Positions 3 to 13,312 of a stretch of DNA of 13,372 nucleotides are shown here, piece after piece; positions within the stretch are counted from its first letter, which is position 1, and each line of letters begins with the position of its first letter. The notes beneath the pieces are model-generated. The model saw only the letters and a program-made list of their open reading frames with translations, was not told the DNA's origin and ran no database searches. The stretch comes from Armatimonadota bacterium. GTDB lineage: Bacteria > Armatimonadota > UBA10988. The stretch spans positions 1 to 13,372 of the forward strand of contig JACRKZ010000176.1 in the NCBI GenBank assembly GCA_016235455.1, in the 5' to 3' direction. A program made the translations under genes and the position numbers.

Positions 3-1457
3 TTCCGCAACCGCTTCAGCTACCACGAGATCGGCTTCGTCACGGTCGAGGGCCTGTCGCAGCCACCGGCGTTGGGCGATGTGGTGGGCTATCAGGTCAC
101 CAACAGCCGTCGGCGCGTAGGCGGGTTCGACTGCTCCGACCGCCTGCTCCGGCGCATCTACGATGTGACCGCCTACACCTACGACAACCTGAGCACCGGC
201 GGCATGACCGTCGACTGCCCGCACCGCGAACGGCTGGGCTACGGTGGCGACGGCCACACCAGTCTGGAGACGGCGGTCGACAGCTTCTGGTCGGCGCCGT
301 TCCTGGCCAAGTGGGCCCAGGACTGGTGCGACATGCAGGGCCAAAGCGGCCGCATCTACCACACCGCGCCGACCATGGGCGGCGGTGGCGGCCCGGCCTG
401 GAGCGGGTTCATCCTGACCATGCCGTGGGAGGTCTATCAGACCTACGGCGACCGGCGCATCATCGAGCGCACCTACCCGTATGCGCGGCGCTGGCTCGAC
501 TTCATGGAGGCCAACGTCGGCCCCGACGGCCTGGTCAAGCAGCTGCCGGGCGGCTACTGGTTGTACCTGGGCGACTGGGTCACCCCGCACGGCAGCGAAG
601 GCAGCGACAAGCCCGAGGCCGCGCTGTTCAACAACTGCTACTACGCCTACGTGACGCGCATCGCCGAGCGCGAAGCGCGCCTGCTCGGCCATCAGGCCGA
701 CGCGGAACTCCTCGCCGCGCGCTACGAGCGGCTCCGCGCGGGCATCAACAAGCGCTTCCTCGACGCCTCGGCGGGCATCTACCTCGATACACGCCAGACG
801 CACCTGGTCATGCCGCTGGTGGCCGGCGTGGTGCCGCCGGCCTATGAGGAGAAGGTACGGGCCAATCTCGAGCACGAGATCGTTGTCGGGCAGCGGGGCC
901 ATGTCGATACGGGCCTGCACGGCACGTACTTCATGACGCGCTACCTGACGGAGATTGGGCGGAGCGACCTGGTGCACACCTATGCCACGCAGACCACGCC
1001 ACCCAGTTACGGCGCGCTGCTGGCGGCGGGCTACACCACCTGGCCCGAGGAGTGGGGCGGCTCGCCCTCGCGGCTGCACGGCTGCCTGAACGGCATCGGC
1101 GGCTGGTTCCAACGCGGCCTGGGCGGCATTCGCGCCGATGAGTCGACGCCGGGCTACCAGCGGTTTGTCATCCGGCCGGCGCTGGTGGGCGACCTGACCT
1201 GGGTCAAGGCGCACCATGAGTCCCCCTACGGCCGCATCGAGTGCGCCTGGCGCCGCGCGGATGGCGAGCTGACGCTGGAGGTCACCGTGCCGCCCAACAG
1301 TTGGGCGACGCTGTATCTGCCGACCAGCGACCGCGCGCGGGTGACCGAAGGCGGCCGGCCGGTGCGCGGCGCCGCCGGCGTCACCTATCTGCGCGAGGAC
1401 GACGGGGCTGCGGTGTATCAGCTCGCGGCGGGCCGCTACCGGTTCGCCGCGCCGTAG
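3..1457 (+). CDS. Alpha-L-rhamnosidase (glycoside hydrolase family 78), 5'-truncated by window edge
   Basis: Frame is open from position 3 (FRNRFSYHEIGFVTVEGL..., matching the GH78 'PRFTYHGFRYV' segment). GH78 motifs: VDCPHRERLGYGGD, LGDW, TGLHGT, GYTTWPEEW, and a C-terminal 'GYQRFVIRP...LTWVKAHHESPYGRIECAW...LEVTVPPNSWATLYLP' domain. Stop TAG 1455-1457. Confidence 0.92.
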   Translation, partial: FRNRFSYHEIGFVTVEGLSQPPALGDVVGYQVTNSRRRVGGFDCSDRLLRRIYDVTAYTYDNLSTGGMTVDCPHRERLGYGGDGHTSLETAVDSFWSAPFLAKWAQDWCDMQGQSGRIYHTAPTMGGGGGPAWSGFILTMPWEVYQTYGDRRIIERTYPYARRWLDFMEANVGPDGLVKQLPGGYWLYLGDWVTPHGSEGSDKPEAALFNNCYYAYVTRIAEREARLLGHQADAELLAARYERLRAGINKRFLDASAGIYLDTRQTHLVMPLVAGVVPPAYEEKVRANLEHEIVVGQRGHVDTGLHGTYFMTRYLTEIGRSDLVHTYATQTTPPSYGALLAAGYTTWPEEWGGSPSRLHGCLNGIGGWFQRGLGGIRADESTPGYQRFVIRPALVGDLTWVKAHHESPYGRIECAWRRADGELTLEVTVPPNSWATLYLPTSDRARVTEGGRPVRGAAGVTYLREDDGAAVYQLAAGRYRFAAP

Positions 1458-1471
1458 TCGAGGAGAGCATC

Positions 1472-2230
1472 GTGGACGTTCACGCCTACAACGCCGACGC
1501 CTGGGACCAGCAGGTGGCCAAGGGCAACCAGTGGACCCAGCCGGTGAGCGCCGAGGTCATCGCCGACGCGCGCGCCGGGCGCTGGTCGGTGGGGCTGATT
1601 GAGCGCCGGCGTGTGCCCGCGCACTGGTTCCCGCCGCTCGCCGGGCTGGACCTGCTGTGCCTGGCCTGCGGCGGCGGGCAACAGGCGCCCACGTTTGCCG
1701 CGGCCGGCGCACGCGTCACTGTGCTCGACGCCTCGGCGGCGCAACTCGGCCAGGACCGGCTGGTGGCCGAGCGTGAGGGCCTGGAACTGCGTCTGGTGCA
1801 GGGCGACATGCGCGATCTGAGCGCATTCGGCGACGGCTCGTTCGACCTGATCTTCCATCCCGTGTCGAACGTCTTCTGCCCCGACATCCTCCCCGTGTGG
1901 CGCGAAGCCCATCGCGTGCTGCGGCCCGGCGGGCGGCTGCTGGCGGGGTTCATGAACCCCGCGGTCTTCCTGTTCGACGATGCTCCCGAGGCCGACGGGC
2001 GGTACCGCCTGAACTACCGCCTGCCGTTCGCCGCCAGCGCCGACCCCGACGGCTGGCGCGCCAAGTACGGCGAAGACACGCCGTTGGAGTTCAGCCACAG
2101 TCTGACCGAGCAGATCGGCGGTCAGCTCGCCGCCGGGTTCGCGCTGCTCGAACTGCACGAGAGCACCAACCACGAGCCGCTGGGTGAGTGGCTGCCGGCG
2201 TACATCGCTACTTTGGCGGAGAAGCGGTGA
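1472..2230 (+). CDS. Class I SAM-dependent methyltransferase (Methyltransf_11-like), 252 aa
   Basis: SD AGGAG 1461-1465, then GTG 1472; the track start at 1241 overlaps the upstream gene. Motif I LLCLACGGGQQ, followed by VTVLD, VQGDMRDL, SFDLIF and HRVLRPGGRL. Confidence 0.9.
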   Translation: MDVHAYNADAWDQQVAKGNQWTQPVSAEVIADARAGRWSVGLIERRRVPAHWFPPLAGLDLLCLACGGGQQAPTFAAAGARVTVLDASAAQLGQDRLVAEREGLELRLVQGDMRDLSAFGDGSFDLIFHPVSNVFCPDILPVWREAHRVLRPGGRLLAGFMNPAVFLFDDAPEADGRYRLNYRLPFAASADPDGWRAKYGEDTPLEFSHSLTEQIGGQLAAGFALLELHESTNHEPLGEWLPAYIATLAEKR

Positions 2231-6780: not shown

Positions 6781-8391
6781 ATGTCCACAACCTCGCTGAC
6801 CGCACTCGCCCTGGCCGTCCTGCTGGCCACCCACACCGCCGCCGCTGAACGCCGCGTGGTCGTCTCGGGCGGCCGGCCCGAGGCCGCTCAGTACGTCGGC
6901 GCTGCCTGGAGCGAGACCGACGGCGGGCTCAGCGCCGAGGGCGTCGGGCGCTTCCTCTACGCCGACCGCGGGCTCGGCTCCGGCGACTTCCGCATCACCG
7001 CGCGGCTGACGCTGGCCCGGCTGGAGGGCACGGCCGCGTCGTTCGTGCTCGATGGCAGCCACCTCGGCTTCGACGGCCGGGGCAAGCAGCTCTTCGCCGA
7101 AGGCCCGCTGTTCGGCGGCGCCACCCGGGCGCTCGGCGCGTCCGAGGCCTGGGTCCGGCCCGGTCAGCCGTTCACCTTCGAGGCCATCCGCCAGGGCGGC
7201 ACGACGCGCTTTCTGGTCGACGGCCGCGAGGTCACGCGCCGGGAACACTGGGATGGCCCCGTCGCGCGCACTGGTTTCCGGCCGCAGCGCAACCGCATGA
7301 CCGTGCAGGAGTTCCAGATGTCCGGTAATCTGACCGTCCCACCGGCCGCGCCCAAGCCGCTGGGCACGCCGGTGTTCATCGGTGGCCAGTTCGGCTACGA
7401 CACCTACCGCATCCCCGCGCTGGCGGTGACCAACGCCGGCACGGTGCTGGCCGTGTGCGAAGGGCGCCGGCACTCGGACAGCGACTCGGGCGACATCGAC
7501 CTGCTGCTGCGGCGCTCGGTCGACAACGGCCAGACCTGGGCCGAGCAGCAGGTGATCTGGGACGACGCCGGCAACACATGCGGCAATCCCTGCCTGGTGG
7601 TGGACCGCGACACCGGCGTCATCTGGCTGCTGGTCACCTGGAATCGCGGCGACGACCACGAGCCGCGGATCATCGACCAGACCAGCCACGATACACGCCG
7701 CGTCTACGTCTGCCACTCCGAGAACGACGGGTTGGCCTGGTCCAAGCCCAGCGAGATCACCGCCAGCACCAAGCTGCCTGCCTGGACCTGGTATGCCACC
7801 GGCCCCGGCAGCGGCATCCAGCTCCAGCACGGCGCGCACCGCGGCCGGCTGGTCATTCCATGCGACCACATCGAGGCCGGCACCAAGCGCTACCTGTCGC
7901 ACGTCATCTACTCCGATGACCACGGCGCGACCTGGCAGCTCGGCGGGACGTCGCCGCGCGACCGGGTCAATGAGTGCGAGGTGGTCGAGTTGTCCGACGG
8001 GCGGCTGATGCTGAACATGCGCAACTACGACCGCACCAAGCGCAGTCGGCAGATAGCCTTCAGCGACGACGGCGGCCAGACCTGGCGCGACCAGCGATTC
8101 GACGCGACGCTCATCGAGCCGATCTGCCAGGCGGCGGTGGACCGCTGTGGCGACGTGCTGCTGTTCAGCAACCCGGCCAGTGCCGCGGAGCGCATCCGCC
8201 TGACCGTGCGCGCCAGCTTCGACGATGGCTCCACCTGGCCGCGCTCGCACCTGCTCTATGCCGGGCCGAGCGGCTACTCCGACCTGGCCGTGCTGGCCAA
8301 CGGCGAGATCGGCTGCCTGTATGAGTGTGGCGTGGTGCGGTCCACCGAGGACATCGTCTTCGCGCGGCTGGCGCTGGACGAGCTGCAGTAG
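6781..8391 (+). CDS. Secreted exo-alpha-sialidase (GH33, BNR/Asp-box propeller) with N-terminal lectin/ConA-like domain
   Basis: Signal peptide; YRIP motif; five Asp boxes (SVDNGQTW, SENDGLAW, SDDHGATW, SDDGGQTW, SFDDGSTW); candidate catalytic residues in VNECEVVE, MLNMR, ERIRLTV, GYSDL and LYE; GGAG at 6767-6770. Confidence 0.93.
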   Translation: MSTTSLTALALAVLLATHTAAAERRVVVSGGRPEAAQYVGAAWSETDGGLSAEGVGRFLYADRGLGSGDFRITARLTLARLEGTAASFVLDGSHLGFDGRGKQLFAEGPLFGGATRALGASEAWVRPGQPFTFEAIRQGGTTRFLVDGREVTRREHWDGPVARTGFRPQRNRMTVQEFQMSGNLTVPPAAPKPLGTPVFIGGQFGYDTYRIPALAVTNAGTVLAVCEGRRHSDSDSGDIDLLLRRSVDNGQTWAEQQVIWDDAGNTCGNPCLVVDRDTGVIWLLVTWNRGDDHEPRIIDQTSHDTRRVYVCHSENDGLAWSKPSEITASTKLPAWTWYATGPGSGIQLQHGAHRGRLVIPCDHIEAGTKRYLSHVIYSDDHGATWQLGGTSPRDRVNECEVVELSDGRLMLNMRNYDRTKRSRQIAFSDDGGQTWRDQRFDATLIEPICQAAVDRCGDVLLFSNPASAAERIRLTVRASFDDGSTWPRSHLLYAGPSGYSDLAVLANGEIGCLYECGVVRSTEDIVFARLALDELQ

Positions 8392-8397
8392 GGCGCG

Positions 8398-10548
8398 CTA
8401 CGGGCTGTGGACCACCGTGACATCGAGGGCCGGCACGCGCACCTCGCCCCCGGCACGCGGGTAAGCGAAGCGCTGTTCGGTCTCGGTCACATTGACGAAG
8501 GCGAGGGCGGTCCGGCCGTCGGGTAGCGTCCAGCCGCTGGCCAACACCGGTGGATGCATGAGCTTCTTGGCCACGCTGTGCCCGTCTTCCCACACGCTGA
8601 AGGCGAACTCGGCGGGGGCCAGCGGCGGGGGCTCGACGGCGACCGCTTCGCCCTGGCTGACGAACTCGCGCAGCGGCCCGCAACGCGCCCGAGTCACCGC
8701 CGCCAGCAGCCGGAGTTGCGCCGGATCGAGCTTGTCGGGCGTGGGCAACAGGTCGTCTTCGCCGTGCTTGTAGAGGATGCCGAACAGGCCCAGATTGGTG
8801 CTCGGCAGACAGCCTCCGGCAAAGGCGCGGGCGGTGAGCAGCAGTTGGTAGGCGTCGGGCGTCACCGAATGCTGCACATCGATGCACAGCGGGCGAGCCA
8901 ACGGCCCGTAGACGAAGGCGAAGGCCGGCACCACCTCGGACGCGGCGCCGTTGGCGGGCCACTCGGTGATGTTGTCGGCGCGGCTGACGTAACTGTCCAG
9001 CACGGGCAGCAGCACTTCGCTGGGATCCTCGAGCGAGGTGCCGAAGTCGGACCGCACCTCGCGGCCGGCGGCACGCGCCGCGGCCACGAAGCGCGTGACG
9101 GCTGCGCTCATCCACGCCCCCGGGCCCTGCGGGTGGCCATGAGTGGTGGCGTAGCAGGGCGGGCAGCCGCCGCCGTTCATCTGGTCGAACTCGAACAGAT
9201 CGAACCCGGCGCCGGCCAGCCGGCGCGCGGCGTCGGGGAAGTGCGCCTGCGTGAAGGCGTGGGCCGGGCACATCTTGGCCTTGCGCCCATCCCAGTTGAA
9301 GAAGGGCGCGTCGATCTGCACCTGCCCGTCGCGGCCAACGACGCACACGGCCCGGCCGTCACGCTCGAAGCGCGCGCGACCATCGAAGCCCGTTACCTGA
9401 TAGGTCCGGGTCTGGTAAGGCTCACGTTCGATCATCCACTGCAGCCCGGCCACCATGGCCGTGGCGTGGGCCGACTCGGCGCGAGCTCCGGCCAGGAGCG
9501 CCTTCAGGCCGTCGTCGCTGGGGTACAGCGGGAAGTAGAACGGCGAGGTGTAGATGCCGTCGTGCTCCCATTCGCGCAGGTCGAGGAGCACGCTCGGTGC
9601 ACCGGTGGCGGCTCGGAGCCGGCGCACCACGTCCGGCCACTGCTCGGGCTGGACCGCGAGCCGGCCCAAGCCCAGCGGCCGCAGTTGGCCACCGAGCGTG
9701 ATGAACCCGCCGTCGAGCCAGGCGGGTGGGGCGTCCGCACCGCGCTTGGGCCTGGCCCACGGTTGCTGCCGAGCCCAGGTGCGGTACATGGCTGCTGCCG
9801 ACTGCCAGGTGCTGCCGCACGGCACCAGCCGCGTCGGCGGCGTGGTGAAGCTCTGGCCGGCCACGAAGGGCAGGGCGTGGCTCACGCGCAGCTCGATCCA
9901 CTCGTGCTCGGCGTCGTAGGGTGCCTCGAAGGCCTTCGGCAGGGCTTGAGGATCGCGCGTCTGGAGTGTCAGTCCGCCATCCTGGCCGAACAGCGCCAGG
10001 TACTGCATCGACGCGTGACCGGGGTAGCCGCGGCCGTTCCAGGGCTTGGCGCGCCAGCCGTCACGGCCGACCAGGTAGCCATCTCCGCCCGGCACGAACA
10101 GCCGGGTCCCGTCGGCATCACCGTGGACCGCCGGCCGCAGACGCAACATGGGCGCAGTCACGGACTCCAGGATGGCCCCGGAGTCGTTGGTCACTGCCGT
10201 CGTGGCCTCGATACCGTCGTCGACCGCGCGCCACGTGGTCACGGCGGTCAGCCGGCGGGCGCCAAAGCGCGCCGTGGCGACGATCTGCTGGTCGTCGGCG
10301 CGGAGCGTGACCTGCTCGGCGTGGCCGGGGTCGAGCCACTGCGAGGTGCGGTCGGCGGGGTCGGTCAGGCGCAGCAGGAATGCAGGCGATGGCGCGGCGA
10401 GCAGTTCGCGGCCCGCGCTGGTCAGCGAGACGAGGCGGCCGCGCTCGGGCTCGACCTCGGCGCGCAGACCGCCGGAAACGAGCACGGCCGCGGGCAAGCC
10501 CGCGGCCGTGACGATGATCAGTGCCAGCCGGACGAGATGCGTACGCAT
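8398..10548 (-). CDS. Secreted DUF6259-like putative glycoside hydrolase (716 aa)
   Basis: Start reassigned to ATG 10548 (GGAG 9 nt upstream, signal peptide MRTHLVRLALIIVTAAGLPA). Motifs 'YPGHASMQYLALF', 'TWQSAAAMYRTWARQQPW', 'KMCP', 'FDQMNGGGCPPCYATTHGHPQGPGAW' and 'VPAFAFVY' are what I recall for DUF6259/GH36-like TIM-barrel proteins. Confidence 0.8.
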   Translation of the reverse strand: MRTHLVRLALIIVTAAGLPAAVLVSGGLRAEVEPERGRLVSLTSAGRELLAAPSPAFLLRLTDPADRTSQWLDPGHAEQVTLRADDQQIVATARFGARRLTAVTTWRAVDDGIEATTAVTNDSGAILESVTAPMLRLRPAVHGDADGTRLFVPGGDGYLVGRDGWRAKPWNGRGYPGHASMQYLALFGQDGGLTLQTRDPQALPKAFEAPYDAEHEWIELRVSHALPFVAGQSFTTPPTRLVPCGSTWQSAAAMYRTWARQQPWARPKRGADAPPAWLDGGFITLGGQLRPLGLGRLAVQPEQWPDVVRRLRAATGAPSVLLDLREWEHDGIYTSPFYFPLYPSDDGLKALLAGARAESAHATAMVAGLQWMIEREPYQTRTYQVTGFDGRARFERDGRAVCVVGRDGQVQIDAPFFNWDGRKAKMCPAHAFTQAHFPDAARRLAGAGFDLFEFDQMNGGGCPPCYATTHGHPQGPGAWMSAAVTRFVAAARAAGREVRSDFGTSLEDPSEVLLPVLDSYVSRADNITEWPANGAASEVVPAFAFVYGPLARPLCIDVQHSVTPDAYQLLLTARAFAGGCLPSTNLGLFGILYKHGEDDLLPTPDKLDPAQLRLLAAVTRARCGPLREFVSQGEAVAVEPPPLAPAEFAFSVWEDGHSVAKKLMHPPVLASGWTLPDGRTALAFVNVTETEQRFAYPRAGGEVRVPALDVTVVHSP

Positions 10549-10565
10549 GGCTGGCGACTCCAGGG

Positions 10566-11309
10566 CTAGCCCTCGGGTTCGAGCTTCTCGAGCGGCTGCG
10601 CGTTGCCGAAGACCATCTTCGGCCCGTTGCACAGCGGCGCCGCCCAGCGGCAGCCGTTGGCGATGATCTTCTGCACTTCGGCCTGGTAGTAGGTCGGATA
10701 GGACTCATGGCCGGGCCGGAAGTAGAAGATCTTGCCGTGGCCGCGGTTATAGCAGCAACCACTGCGGAAGACTTCGCCGCCGGCGAACCAGCTCACCAGC
10801 ACCAGCGTGTCGGGCGCGGGGATGTCGAACGGCTCGCCATACATCTCCTCATGCGGGATGTCGACCCACTCGCCGATGCCTTCGACGATGGGATGGCCGC
10901 GCTCGATGACCCACAGGCGCTCCTTCTCGGCGGCTTCACGCCACTTGAGGTTGCAGCAGGTGCCCATGAGCTTCTGGAAGATCTTGGAGAAGTGGCCCGA
11001 ATGCAGGACCACCAGGCCCATGCCGTCGAGCACGCGCTGATGGACGCGAGCGACGATGTCGTCCTGCACCTCGCCGTGCGCGCAGTGGCCCCACCAGATG
11101 AGCACATCGGTGTTGGCCAGCACTTCGGCGGTCAGGCCGTGCTCGGGCTCATCGAGCGTGGCGCAACTTGCGTCGATGCCGCCCGCGGCGTTGAGCGCGT
11201 CGGCGATGACCTTGTGCATGCCCTCGGGGTAGAGGGTGGAAGCGGGGTGGTTCTCGTTGCGCTCGTGCCGGAACTCGTTCCAGACCGTGACTCTCAGCTT
11301 GTGGCTCAT
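10566..11309 (-). CDS. thuA: ThuA-family (trehalose utilisation) protein, class I glutamine amidotransferase-like fold
   Basis: Signature [10 protein letters not shown]...YPEGMH...[11 protein letters not shown]...DVLIWWGH...[16 protein letters not shown]...[11 protein letters not shown]...GGEVFRSG...[13 protein letters not shown]; SD GAGGA upstream. Only 17 nt separate it from the DUF6259-like gene, so they likely form an operon. Confidence 0.93.
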
Positions 11310-11404
11310 GGGGTGTTCCTCACTATCGGGTCCAGCTTGTCGCCCACGCGTAGCGGACAGACCCCCAATGCGCCGACCGTCCGGCGGTTCCTGCCGAGCC
11401 GCCC

Positions 11405-11443
11405 AAAAAGGCAGCCGGCCCCTCGCAATAGGCGAAGGGCCGG
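11405..11443 (-). terminator. Intrinsic terminator-like hairpin upstream of thuA
   Basis: Minus strand CCGGCCCTTCGC-CTATT-GCGAGGGGCCGG: a 12-bp stem with one G-U pair that works only on the minus strand, followed by CTGCC-TTTTT. The U-tract is offset by 5 nt, so efficiency is uncertain. Confidence 0.65.
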
Positions 11444-11542
11444 AAATCGACTATAGACCGTTGAGATCCCGAGACAACACCGCTGGTCCCAGACCGGCCC
11501 CTAGTGGGTCCCAGGTCGGCCAGAGAAGCCGGTGGCCTCGGG

Positions 11543-11599
11543 TCAGAGGTCCGGCGGCATTCTCCCGCTCAACAGGCGACGAACAACTACGAAGCGCAT
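11543..11599 (-). CDS. Putative leader peptide/uORF MRFVVVRRLLSGRMPPDL (18 aa)
   Basis: Manual translation from ATG 11599 to TGA 11545-11543; SD-like GGTGAAAGGGG ends 8 nt upstream. Below the ORF-track length cut-off. Confidence 0.4.
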   Translation of the reverse strand: MRFVVVRRLLSGRMPPDL

Positions 11600-11845
11600 T
11601 CCTGTCGCCCCTTTCACCATTCAGCTCGCCTGCTCTCGCCCGGCTGTCCGCGGTCGGAGGTGCATTGCGCGATCAAAACCGCATACTGACGGGAACCGAC
11701 GGCACCTCGACAGCTTCCACGAGGAAGCGATCGCGGTGGCGACGTCGGGAGCCCCGATCCGCACTCGCACCGCCCAACGGGACGAGAGCCCGTTGACTTG
11801 ACGGCGTCTCTGTGACCCTGTGGTCTCCGTCCGCCGTCACTAGTT

Positions 11846-11874
11846 AGTATCGTCCACCCGCCCCGGTGTTGCAG
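11846..11874 (-). promoter_or_regulatory. Putative sigma70-type promoter for the structured RNA
   Basis: Minus strand CTGCAA (11874-11869), 17-nt spacer, GATACT (11851-11846); the first hairpin begins about 6 nt downstream. Match to consensus is weak. Confidence 0.4.
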
Positions 11875-12217
11875 GTGCGTCAGGAGCAGTTTCGCAATGC
11901 CAGTGCAACATAATGCCGGGGTGCGCCGGTCGTGCAGGGCGCCGATCCGCTTGCCATGCTGGTTTGCGCGGGCGGCTCTGGGCGATAGATGATTTCGACG
12001 ATTTCGGCGCGCGACGAGCTGACCGGCCAGTCTCGCCCGACGGCGTAGGTGGCGCTGAGTCCTCGCTGGCCAGAATTGGCCCATTGGGCGGATTCGGCTT
12101 CAGTAGGCGGGCCGGCGAGCCGAATAGAATCGTGGCAGTGGCAGGTAGTCGCCACGGCCGACGGTGAGCACCGGCTTTCTAGTCTGACCGGGCCGCCACC
12201 ACAGTGAGGTACTTGCT

Positions 12218-12388
12218 ATGGCTTGGTGTATCCAGCGCGGCGCTGCCGCGCCGTCAGCCCCGCGGCCCCCGGCCGCCGCTCCGACCGCATCTCCCGGCGT
12301 CATGCCACGCTGGCCGCGCGTGCCGTGCGTCCACCGGGTCGACACCGCTATGCCCATGCCCCAGCTGGCGCTATCGATGCCGGACTAG
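12218..12388 (+). CDS. Possible small Pro/Ala-rich protein (56 aa)
   Basis: GAGGT at 12206-12210 then ATG 12218; MAWCIQRGAAAPSAPRPPAAAPTASPGVMPRWPRVPCVHRVDTAMPMPQLALSMPD*. No recognisable homology. Confidence 0.25.
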   Translation: MAWCIQRGAAAPSAPRPPAAAPTASPGVMPRWPRVPCVHRVDTAMPMPQLALSMPD

Positions 12389-12520
12389 CACCCTCGGTCT
12401 CACCGCCCACGCCACTCGTGTTGGACGCGAACCGCACTGCTGGTTTGCGCCCAATGCTTTTTGGTTTTTTGCATCCATTGCATTGATGTTCTCAGTCAAT
12501 GGGCGGTCTATATTTTCTCC

Positions 12521-12547
12521 TAAACTTATGTCGAGGTGGGCCGATAA
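12521..12547 (+). promoter_or_regulatory. Sigma28 (FliA/SigD) promoter
   Basis: Perfect consensus TAAA (12521-12524)-N15-GCCGATAA (12540-12547), about 85 nt upstream of a flagellin gene. Confidence 0.93.
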
Positions 12548-12557
12548 CACTCAGCAA

Positions 12558-12631
12558 GGGCCCATGGACCCGAGGATGAGCGCCTCTATTCTAGTTGTGA
12601 GGCGCCTCCTGATAGTATCAAGGAGACTTCG
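12558..12631 (+). promoter_or_regulatory. Structured flagellin 5' UTR with CsrA-type GGA sites
   Basis: ATGGA 12564-12568, AGGA 12573-12576 and AAGGAG (SD) 12620-12625; hairpins GCGCCTC/GAGGCGC (12580-12605) and CTCCTGAT/ATC-A-AGGAG (12606-12625), the latter covering the SD. Confidence 0.55.
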
Positions 12632-13312
12632 ATGGCTTTCAGTATCAGGAACAACACCACAGCCTTGTTCACGCAGCGCAGTATGAGCGCGACGCAGGCC
12701 GAGCTGAGCGGTGTGATGGAGCGGTTGTCGAGCGGCTACCGCATCAACAAGGCGGCCGACGATGCGGCTGGTCTCGCCATCAGCGAGAAGCTGCGTGCCC
12801 AGGTGCGCGGTCTGAACCAGGCCTCGCGCAACGCCCAGGACGGCGTGAGCGTCATCCAGACGACGGAAGCCGCGCTGGGTGAGGGTGGCAGCATCCTCCA
12901 GCGCATGCGTGAACTGACGGTGGAGGCCGCCAACGACACGCTGACCTCGGGCGACCGCGCCAACATCCAGAAGGAAGTGGATGCGCTGCTCTCGGAGATC
13001 GACCGGTTCGCCGGGGCGACCGAGTTCAATACCCAGAAGCTGATCAGTGGCTCGCTGGCGACCACCGCCATGACGCTGCAGATCGGCGCCAACCAGAACC
13101 AGACGATCAGCTTCACCGTCATGACTATAGCTCAGAGCTCCCTGCCCGCTTTGCCGGCATCCGCCGGGCGTCCGCTTAAAAGCTGGACCAGGCGCAGGCA
13201 GGTGACGAGCGTGATCAGACCGAAGCCTACCGCCACTGCGCCATGCGGAATCCACATCGGGATCCGCCCCATGTCGCTGACGCGGCCGAAGATGAACATC
13301 TGCTTGACGTAG
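12632..13312 (+). CDS. fliC: Flagellin, N-terminal domain only; truncated at ~13125, remainder of the ORF is antisense read-through
   Basis: Flagellin_N motifs MERLSSGYRINKAADDAAGLAISEKLRAQVRGLNQASRNAQDGVSVIQTTEAAL, ILQRMREL, DRANIQKE, TEFNTQKL and LQIGAN. No C-terminal flagellin helix (LGAxQNRL...SRIxDxD); the last ~60 aa are the reverse complement of a dctQ-like gene. Confidence 0.9.
   Translation: MAFSIRNNTTALFTQRSMSATQAELSGVMERLSSGYRINKAADDAAGLAISEKLRAQVRGLNQASRNAQDGVSVIQTTEAALGEGGSILQRMRELTVEAANDTLTSGDRANIQKEVDALLSEIDRFAGATEFNTQKLISGSLATTAMTLQIGANQNQTISFTVMTIAQSSLPALPASAGRPLKSWTRRRQVTSVIRPKPTATAPCGIHIGIRPMSLTRPKMNICLT

Follow-up and report, generated by a model that had tools for sequence, protein, structure and literature searches.

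The window analysed here is a stretch of 13,372 nt from a metagenome-assembled genome of an Armatimonadota bacterium (6.5 Mb in 185 contigs, 93% complete; G000 below), and upstream of its thuA gene lies a structured RNA gene of about 435 nt that is real and very probably expressed. We favour the reading, to which we give a probability of about 0.5, that its product is a stable, structured non-coding RNA (ncRNA) which stands alone and belongs to an uncatalogued family. The first-pass annotation of the window had suggested, for the minus strand, either a new large ncRNA or a leader resembling a riboswitch, with ends expected near 11840 and 11405. This proposal is supported, and none of the outcomes named there as speaking against it (a strong Rfam hit, no covariation among homologues, a folding energy no better than that of shuffles, no minus-strand transcript) was found; between the two readings that it offered we lean towards the stand-alone ncRNA rather than the leader.

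Results

The RNA lies in a gene-free gap upstream of thuA

The GC content by codon position shows no coding signal from 11310 to about 12620, which leaves a 1.3-kb gap between the two flanking genes, thuA and a flagellin gene (Table 1), and the RNA region occupies the thuA-proximal third of this gap. Two long ORFs span the RNA region and a Pfam search found no domain in either of them; on this ground and for the absent codon signal, a protein-coding reading of the region was rejected. Homologous copies are available from G001, the single other genome of the source genus, and from a metagenome contig, L026, in which the 5' end of the RNA is cut, giving two full sequences and one partial one. 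In all three copies thuA is the downstream neighbour on the same strand, and in the window its start lies 95 nt past the U-run of the terminator described below. The neighbour on the other side is not constant; it is the flagellin gene in G000 and a different one in G001, where the two long ORFs found on that side of the RNA have no Flagellin_N match.

Several other features of the window were recorded. Beyond the RNA, a further 770 bases before the flagellin start (11860-12630) have neither coding signal nor Rfam match, with GC down to 40-55% around 12400-12600. The last 62 of these bases, just before the flagellin start codon (12569-12630), share 84% identity with C142:603-663, within the same genome, and, judging by this match, may be a leader shared by flagellin paralogues. 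The product of the gene after thuA (8398-10632, minus strand) is 744 aa long and contains a DUF6259 domain (E 2.2e-21). The listed ORF of this gene runs 67 bases into the end of thuA, and thus its true start is probably further in. ARAGORN reports no tRNA or tmRNA in the RNA region, and its call of a "tRNA-???" with a four-base anticodon at 7011-7088 (plus strand), inside long ORFs of both strands, is probably false.

Table 1. Features of the RNA locus and contigs from RNA libraries that cover it (positions are those of the window; the ends of the transcript are predicted).
Feature	Position	Strand	Basis or remark
thuA, ThuA-family protein, 247 aa	10566..11309	(-)	Pfam ThuA, E 6.1e-35
Flagellin gene	from 12632	(+)	Flagellin_N, E 2.2e-42
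ncRNA primary transcript, predicted, about 435 nt	11405..11840	(-)	Ends placed from promoter-like block and terminator
Promoter-like block: -35 CTGCAA (11874..11869), 17-nt spacer, -10 GATACT (11851..11846)	11846..11874	(-)	Conserved in G001
P1, 5' hairpin GACGGCG/CGCCGUC with inner short stem	11799..11839	(-)	In independent folds of both copies
Hairpin CAACGGG/CCCGUUG	11775..11795	(-)	13/14 cells paired, 1 double change
P2 domain, long-range helix (5' strand 11787..11765, 3' strand 11663..11634)	11634..11787	(-)	Encloses P3 and P4
P3, variable-length arm closed by CGGGG/UCCCG	11690..11756	(-)	Base pairs kept
P4, hairpin UGCGGU-UUUG-AUCGCG	11668..11683	(-)	5 pairs, 1 double and 1 one-sided change
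P5, hairpin domain, inner stem GGRGCG/CGCUUC (11611..11606 with 11596..11591)	11573..11632	(-)	Folds of three copies
P6, variable 3' domain, CCCGAG (11542..11537) with CUCGGG (11473..11468)	11455..11549	(-)	Stem by eye
Intrinsic terminator: 12-bp stem (10 G-C), 5-nt loop, then CUGCC and five U	11405..11443	(-)	Scan
Block B1, UGGGCGGUGCGAGUGC	11762..11777	(-)	Identical in G000 and G001 (alignments A1, A3)
Block B2, CCGCGGACAGCCGG	11641..11654	(-)	Identical in G000, G001 and L026
Block B3, UGAGCGGGAGAAUGCCGCCGGA	11550..11571	(-)	Identical in G000, G001 and L026
X20 contig, 364 nt	11465-11819		15 other letters, no gaps
X19 contigs	11450-11688 and 11659-11789		Second one identical to the window
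X10 contig, 211 nt	11590-11794		11 other letters, depth 2778.5

A terminator and a conserved promoter-like block frame the RNA

A terminator scan returned one intrinsic terminator, on the minus strand, with its stem at 11443..11415 and its U-run at 11409..11405. The stem is present in the folds of all three copies and carries one double and three one-sided changes in G001; the U-run is weaker in that genome, which makes read-through into thuA plausible. At the other end, a promoter-like block stops 5 nt ahead of the first helix and would, on its sequence, set the transcript start near 11840. When the alignment is read by eye, the block is kept in G001 as GTGTAA-N17-CATACT, and it also resembles, again by eye, the TTGCAA-N17-TAGTAT that precedes the 6S gene of genome G006. 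A consensus promoter scan gave no site at the 5' side of the RNA and none between the terminator and the thuA start, its sole promoter-like match being at 11477..11450, inside the RNA. Of the boundaries suggested by the first-pass annotation, a candidate promoter and a terminator, the scan therefore recovers the terminator and not the promoter, though the promoter-like block is conserved in G001.

Three invariant blocks and a narrow distribution

BLAST of the region against 61 related genomes gave a match in G001 only, where the copy also lies upstream of thuA. The overall identity of the two copies is about 75% in the RNA region, with indels whose lengths are not multiples of three, and three blocks of 16, 14 and 22 nt (B1, B2 and B3) are 100% identical between the two genomes, as compared to 79% for the DNA of the adjacent thuA. 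An exact 20-mer of B3 is found in 11 stretches of metagenome contigs, among which L026 alone is a homologue, closer to the window than G001 and again followed by the terminator and thuA. One of the remaining stretches (L031) lies inside a coding gene, and the nine others were set aside because the other blocks are missing, and on that ground alone. When up to three mismatches were allowed, the B3 pattern matched 19 of 401 genomes of the phylum, as against 8 control matches; the other blocks are in place in none of the matching genomes beyond G000 and G001, and one match (L020) falls inside a coding gene. A search for B1 in viral contigs gave no match.

An nhmmer profile built from the three copies finds a single copy in G000, in which no repeats or further copies of the RNA were seen, and has no match at 81 other thuA loci (80 from other phyla and one from G005). 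Two covariance models, R1 for the 3' half (three sequences) and R2 for the P2 domain (two sequences), match G000 and G001 only in searches of 151 and 40 genomes, respectively. Among the reference genomes covered by these searches, a single genus carries the RNA.

A separate locus of G003 (L015; contig C586, about 1400-1920, minus strand) is free of genes and flanked by a pilC-like gene and one other gene, not by thuA, and it contains B3-, B2- and B1-like words as well as a terminator-like hairpin. It scores 18.5 bits with nhmmer, for a locus pre-selected by pattern, and 15.2 bits with R1 when the filters are off; the R1 and R2 genome searches miss it, BLAST started from it does not find the window, and, its homology not being established, it was left out of the analyses above.

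The two full copies fold alike on the minus strand

As a single sequence, 11400-11850 folds better than 100 of 100 dinucleotide shuffles on both strands, with z-scores of -2.94 (minus) and -3.04 (plus). The comparison with shuffles by which the first-pass annotation had proposed to check the fold thus comes out in its favour; the advantage is modest, and since the z-scores are alike on both strands the shuffle test alone selects no strand. Much more structure is shared between the copies than shuffling would give. When G000 and G001 were folded separately (minimum energy) and both folds were projected on an L-INS-i alignment, 54 base pairs fell at identical columns, with 6 double and 8 one-sided changes, while 100 column shuffles that keep the conservation pattern gave 1.6±2.7 shared pairs (maximum 11). 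Concomitantly, the RNAalifold consensus energy is -116.9, as compared to -73.5±6.1 in shuffles. On the reverse complement, that is the plus strand, there are 23 shared pairs and the consensus energy is -93.3. At least 9 of the shared pairs are G-U in one copy, and the earlier argument for the minus strand, drawn from G-U pairs, holds, as does the expectation of compensatory changes among homologues. Altogether, the shared fold, the G-U pairs and the terminator indicate the minus strand.

In the sub-alignment A5, all 26 pairs of P2, the base of P3 and P4 form in both copies, with three double changes, whereas 35-50% are paired in controls with the partners slid by 1-3 columns; with just two rows, a shuffle control of A5 (59/500) lacks power. 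The whole-length alignment A3 misaligns P5a, P6 and the terminator, so that its column counts fail there, and it was replaced by A5 and the L-INS-i alignment. The structure is partly derived from the same sequences that test it, so that these controls flatter it, and with only two and a half sequences the predicted fold is provisional.

Architecture of the predicted RNA

The helices listed in the first-pass annotation are all present in the sequence, and three of them are weaker in G001. The one closest to the 5' end, TGACGGCG/CGCCGTCA, is kept in G001 with two double changes and one mismatch, and the CAACGGG/CCCGTTG hairpin that follows it is likewise retained (Table 1). The loop and 3' strand of this hairpin double as the 5' strand of the long-range helix P2, and the two would therefore be alternative or pseudoknotted; the long-range alternative appears in both independent folds. 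P2 comprises 18 pairs (A5 columns 13-36 with 144-169), all of them formed in both copies, with two double and two one-sided changes. It joins the B1 region to the B2 region, B1 being the 5' strand of its inner part in both folds. The helix GCGGTGCGA/TCGCACCGC, also proposed earlier, has 16 of 18 cells paired and no double change, and both folds prefer a long-range rival to it. Of the proposed pairing GAGGTGC/GCACCTC, just 3 of 7 positions exist in G001.

Within P2, the peripheral P3 arm varies in length, as the peripheral arms of functional RNAs do. One RNA-library contig has 20 other letters in place of 53 nt of this arm (11699-11751), and its tip is wholly different in G001. The GCTTCC/GGAAGC stem suggested for this tip is not kept as a sequence; another 6-bp stem with a UUCG loop, GUGGCU-UUCG-AGCCAC, takes its place at the same arm tip in G001 (by eye). 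The pseudoknot that had been put forward as possible, CGCGATC/GATCGCG (11674..11668 with 11735..11729, inside P3), gains from the comparison, with 13 of 14 cells paired and double changes in 4 of its 7 pairs. It uses the 3' strand of P4, and P4 and the pseudoknot are thus alternatives.

In P5, the loop of the inner stem is variable in length and sequence, and a G-U pair of this stem becomes A-U in G001. The outer stem CAGGCGA/UCGCCUG is kept in L026 and its register is shifted in G001 (by eye). Two further helices of the first-pass annotation, GGCGAC/GTCGCC and GTTGAG/CTCAAC, can be followed into L026 but are not evident in G001. The sequence of P6 is strongly divergent among the three copies, and its inner stem survives via G-U pairs: CCCGAG/CTCGGG, which had also been listed, persists in both G001 and L026 as CCCGGG/CUCGGG, one pair being G-U (by eye).

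Contigs from RNA libraries cover the core of the RNA

According to a run index, 20 sequencing runs hold words of 10566-12700, and six of these are metatranscriptomes with 7-11% of the words each. Contig coverage was examined in three metatranscriptome runs from three studies (X10, X19 and X20) and in one DNA run, the small shares in others (X11-X18 among them) being left aside; these data are assembled contigs, which show no strand or ends and whose depth gauges expression poorly. In all three metatranscriptome runs examined, contigs cover the core of the RNA (about 11450-11822; Table 1). The presence of the transcript, which the first-pass annotation had expected on the minus strand, is in this way borne out for the core, the strand not being readable from contigs. 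Besides the 211-nt contig, X10 contains a second variant of the RNA (300-nt contig, depth 263.1) and an 817-nt thuA contig that is about 95% alike, a similarity close to that of the 211-nt RNA contig, at a depth of 13.4. On the assumption that the RNA and thuA contigs come from one organism, the depth of these neighbouring loci differs about 200-fold in one run, which is unlike DNA carry-over. The RNA is, in all likelihood, transcribed and probably abundant.

None of the four runs examined has contig cover on 11862-12077. In X10 the thuA contig ends at 11346 and there is no contig on 11358-11501; this gap would fit separate transcripts, a missing contig cover proving nothing by itself. Of the stretch 11860-12630, a contig of the DNA run X4 covers just 12118-12336.

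The RNA matches no catalogued family

None of the 4227 models of Rfam 15, which include RNase P, tmRNA, SRP, 6S, riboswitches, OLE, GOLLD, ROOL and HEARO, reached its gathering score anywhere in the window; the first-pass annotation, for its part, could match no signature of RNase P, tmRNA, SRP, T-box, cobalamin, c-di-GMP, c-di-AMP or raiA. Up to E 10, only six weak unrelated matches are found in 11250-12000, the best at 18.2 bits for a gathering score of 45. The region is neither RNase P RNA nor tmRNA, the genome's copies of which lie elsewhere (C131:20741-21114, 261.9 bits, and C70:12506-12888, 169.3 bits, respectively). With the 6S model RF00013, G000 gives no match up to E 1, and the region itself gives none up to E 10. 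A 6S RNA is an unbranched rod that the 5' and 3' ends close and that opens into a large bubble at its centre; here, the minimum-energy fold is branched in both G000 and G001, with the 5' end in a local hairpin. RNA sponges of the CsrB/RsmZ type have many GGA motifs, mostly in hairpin loops, and such an identity was rejected, as the 435 nt contain 11 GGA, compared to 8.2±2.5 in 1000 shuffles, and one ANGGA. A search of the literature on Armatimonadota or Armatimonadetes found no description of such an RNA; supplementary files were outside this search and a listing there is possible.

Discussion

As a stand-alone ncRNA, the RNA would be transcribed from the minus strand by its own sigma-70-type promoter, with a start near 11840, and would be released at the intrinsic terminator, with an end near 11405. 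It would fold in the order P1, P2 enclosing P3 and P4, P5, the variable P6 and the terminator stem. The blocks B1, B2 and B3, which lie in or next to the P2 helix and its junctions, may form the working core and are a candidate binding site for a protein or other partner, and the arms would be free to vary in length and sequence. With the 3' strand of P4 predicted to pair either locally or with a segment of P3, the core may switch between two conformations. The RNA would act in trans and accumulate as a stable species, rather than control thuA in cis.

What speaks against a stand-alone RNA is its leader-like arrangement, with thuA downstream on the same strand in three of three copies and a differing neighbour on the other side. 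The main rival explanation, which we consider possible but doubtful, is a cis-acting leader of the thuA operon, either a riboswitch of very large size or a transcription attenuator under the control of a protein or ligand. The core would then act as the sensor of some signal, such as a metabolite derived from sugar, and the terminator, at 95 nt from the gene, would decide on transcription of the operon; the abundant RNA would be the terminated leader, which could also be far deeper than the gene. The position of the RNA is that of a leader, immediately 5' of the gene on the same strand, with the terminator between the structured domain and the start codon and no scanned promoter-like site from there to thuA. 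Moreover, the invariant internal blocks resemble a ligand pocket, and the alternative pairing of the P4 3' strand, with its double changes in 4 of 7 pairs, suggests a conformational switch. However, this bistable element is about 230 nt away from the terminator, and the search upstream for a partner of the terminator's 5' arm gave no pairing stronger than shuffled arms give (shuffles are at least as good in 0.37, 0.96 and 0.43 of cases for the three copies), while the site of the best upstream duplex is not conserved in G001. The lack of such a partner and the absence of the RNA from 81 of 81 other thuA loci by the nhmmer profile argue against cis control, the association with thuA being found within one genus only. 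At about 435 nt, the RNA also exceeds the larger riboswitch classes about twofold in length, and G000, where there are other sugar-use loci, has just one copy of it. Conservation of the neighbour is compatible with a stand-alone RNA, as judged from Ms1, which is described as retaining a conserved flanking gene without being its leader and as traced across actinobacteria by synteny (PMC9130861); with raiA, it offers a precedent for an abundant trans-acting RNA that keeps a neighbour gene without regulating it.

It is very improbable that the region is non-functional, that is, GC-rich intergenic DNA with chance hairpins that is conserved by kinship and owes its presence in RNA libraries to read-through or DNA carry-over. 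The carriers are indeed close relatives only, the single-sequence z-scores do not differ between strands and RNA libraries can contain DNA; but kinship would have to account for intergenic blocks that are 100% identical next to coding sequence at 79%, and chance for 54 shared pairs with compensatory changes where shuffles give 1.6±2.7. The terminator, too, is maintained by compensation, and the 200-fold difference in depth between neighbouring contigs of one RNA run stands against carry-over.

A special case of the stand-alone ncRNA, which we regard as improbable and which is drawn by analogy with Ms1, is that the RNA functionally replaces 6S RNA in this lineage, being abundant and bound to RNA polymerase. 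Ms1 binds RNA polymerase in actinobacteria that lack 6S. It is described as abundant, about 300 nt long and variable in sequence between genera, with its flanking gene kept (PMC4191392, PMC9130861). In G000 the Rfam 6S model matches nothing even at E 1, and the same model matches none of the six genomes of family f1 (G000 to G005), as compared to 47 of 101 genomes in a phylum sample, G006 of the sister family being among those matched. The 6S gene of G006 (L143; C62:11889-12083) lies upstream of a cluster of ytxH, rsbV, rsbW and a sigma factor. The rsbV-rsbW-sigma-transporter cluster of G000 (C110) is syntenic to it and has no 6S match upstream, and the high contig depth in an RNA library would also suit a 6S stand-in. 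This proposal is countered by the branched fold with its 5' end in a local hairpin and by the lack of a 6S score on the region even at E 10. Furthermore, the other four f1 genomes have neither a 6S match nor this RNA, and the missing match may therefore merely mean that the Rfam model misses family f1. The model is known to miss lineages, and the same 6S search was positive in just 4-5 of 14 control genomes. Family f1 would thus either have a 6S RNA invisible to the model or use something else. As a replacement for 6S the RNA is a speculative candidate, reached by elimination alone, its sole support being the contrast of 0/6 with 47/101. That a branched 435-nt RNA took over the sequestering or tuning of RNA polymerase, with the either/or pairing of P4 as a release switch, has in our view a low probability; if true, polymerase-binding RNAs would have, besides those of 6S and Ms1, a third architecture.

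Large, highly structured bacterial RNAs without known function are few, and those that have been studied (raiA, OLE, GOLLD and ROOL) have, by published accounts, opened new biology or architecture. The present candidate has clear boundaries, shared-fold evidence and a footprint in public metatranscriptomes, and its host belongs to a poorly studied uncultured lineage. If trans-acting, it would be a new RNA class; if a leader, a sensor of unusual size that precedes a sugar-use operon. The present claims are limited by the narrow distribution of the RNA and by the very few sequences.

With terminator-type riboswitch or attenuator leaders, the RNA shares a conserved structured domain followed by an intrinsic terminator ahead of a same-strand operon, and an alternative pairing that has covariation support. 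Unlike these, it has no conserved antiterminator and no link with thuA outside the genus, its size is about twice the usual one, and none of the known riboswitch classes in Rfam 15 matches it. The raiA motif RNA, as portrayed in PMC10861870 and PMC12968392, is named after the gene usually found downstream and is studied as an independent ncRNA whose biochemical function is unknown. In these accounts it is likewise a structured, multi-stem RNA of a few hundred nucleotides, very abundant in Bacillota and Actinomycetota. In contrast to raiA, which occurs in over 2700 species, the RNA described here is found in two genomes of one genus and in environmental relatives; it has no Rfam score (raiA included, if it is in release 15), and its neighbour is thuA. 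The RNA differs from 6S in its predicted branched fold and in the absence of a 6S model score. Abundance, stability and a stand-alone gene with a terminator, which are features of 6S and Ms1, are those that we propose for this RNA, and the likeness to Ms1 as described in PMC4191392 and PMC9130861 goes further, both RNAs being longer than 6S, hard to trace beyond close relatives and accompanied by a flanking gene that is kept.
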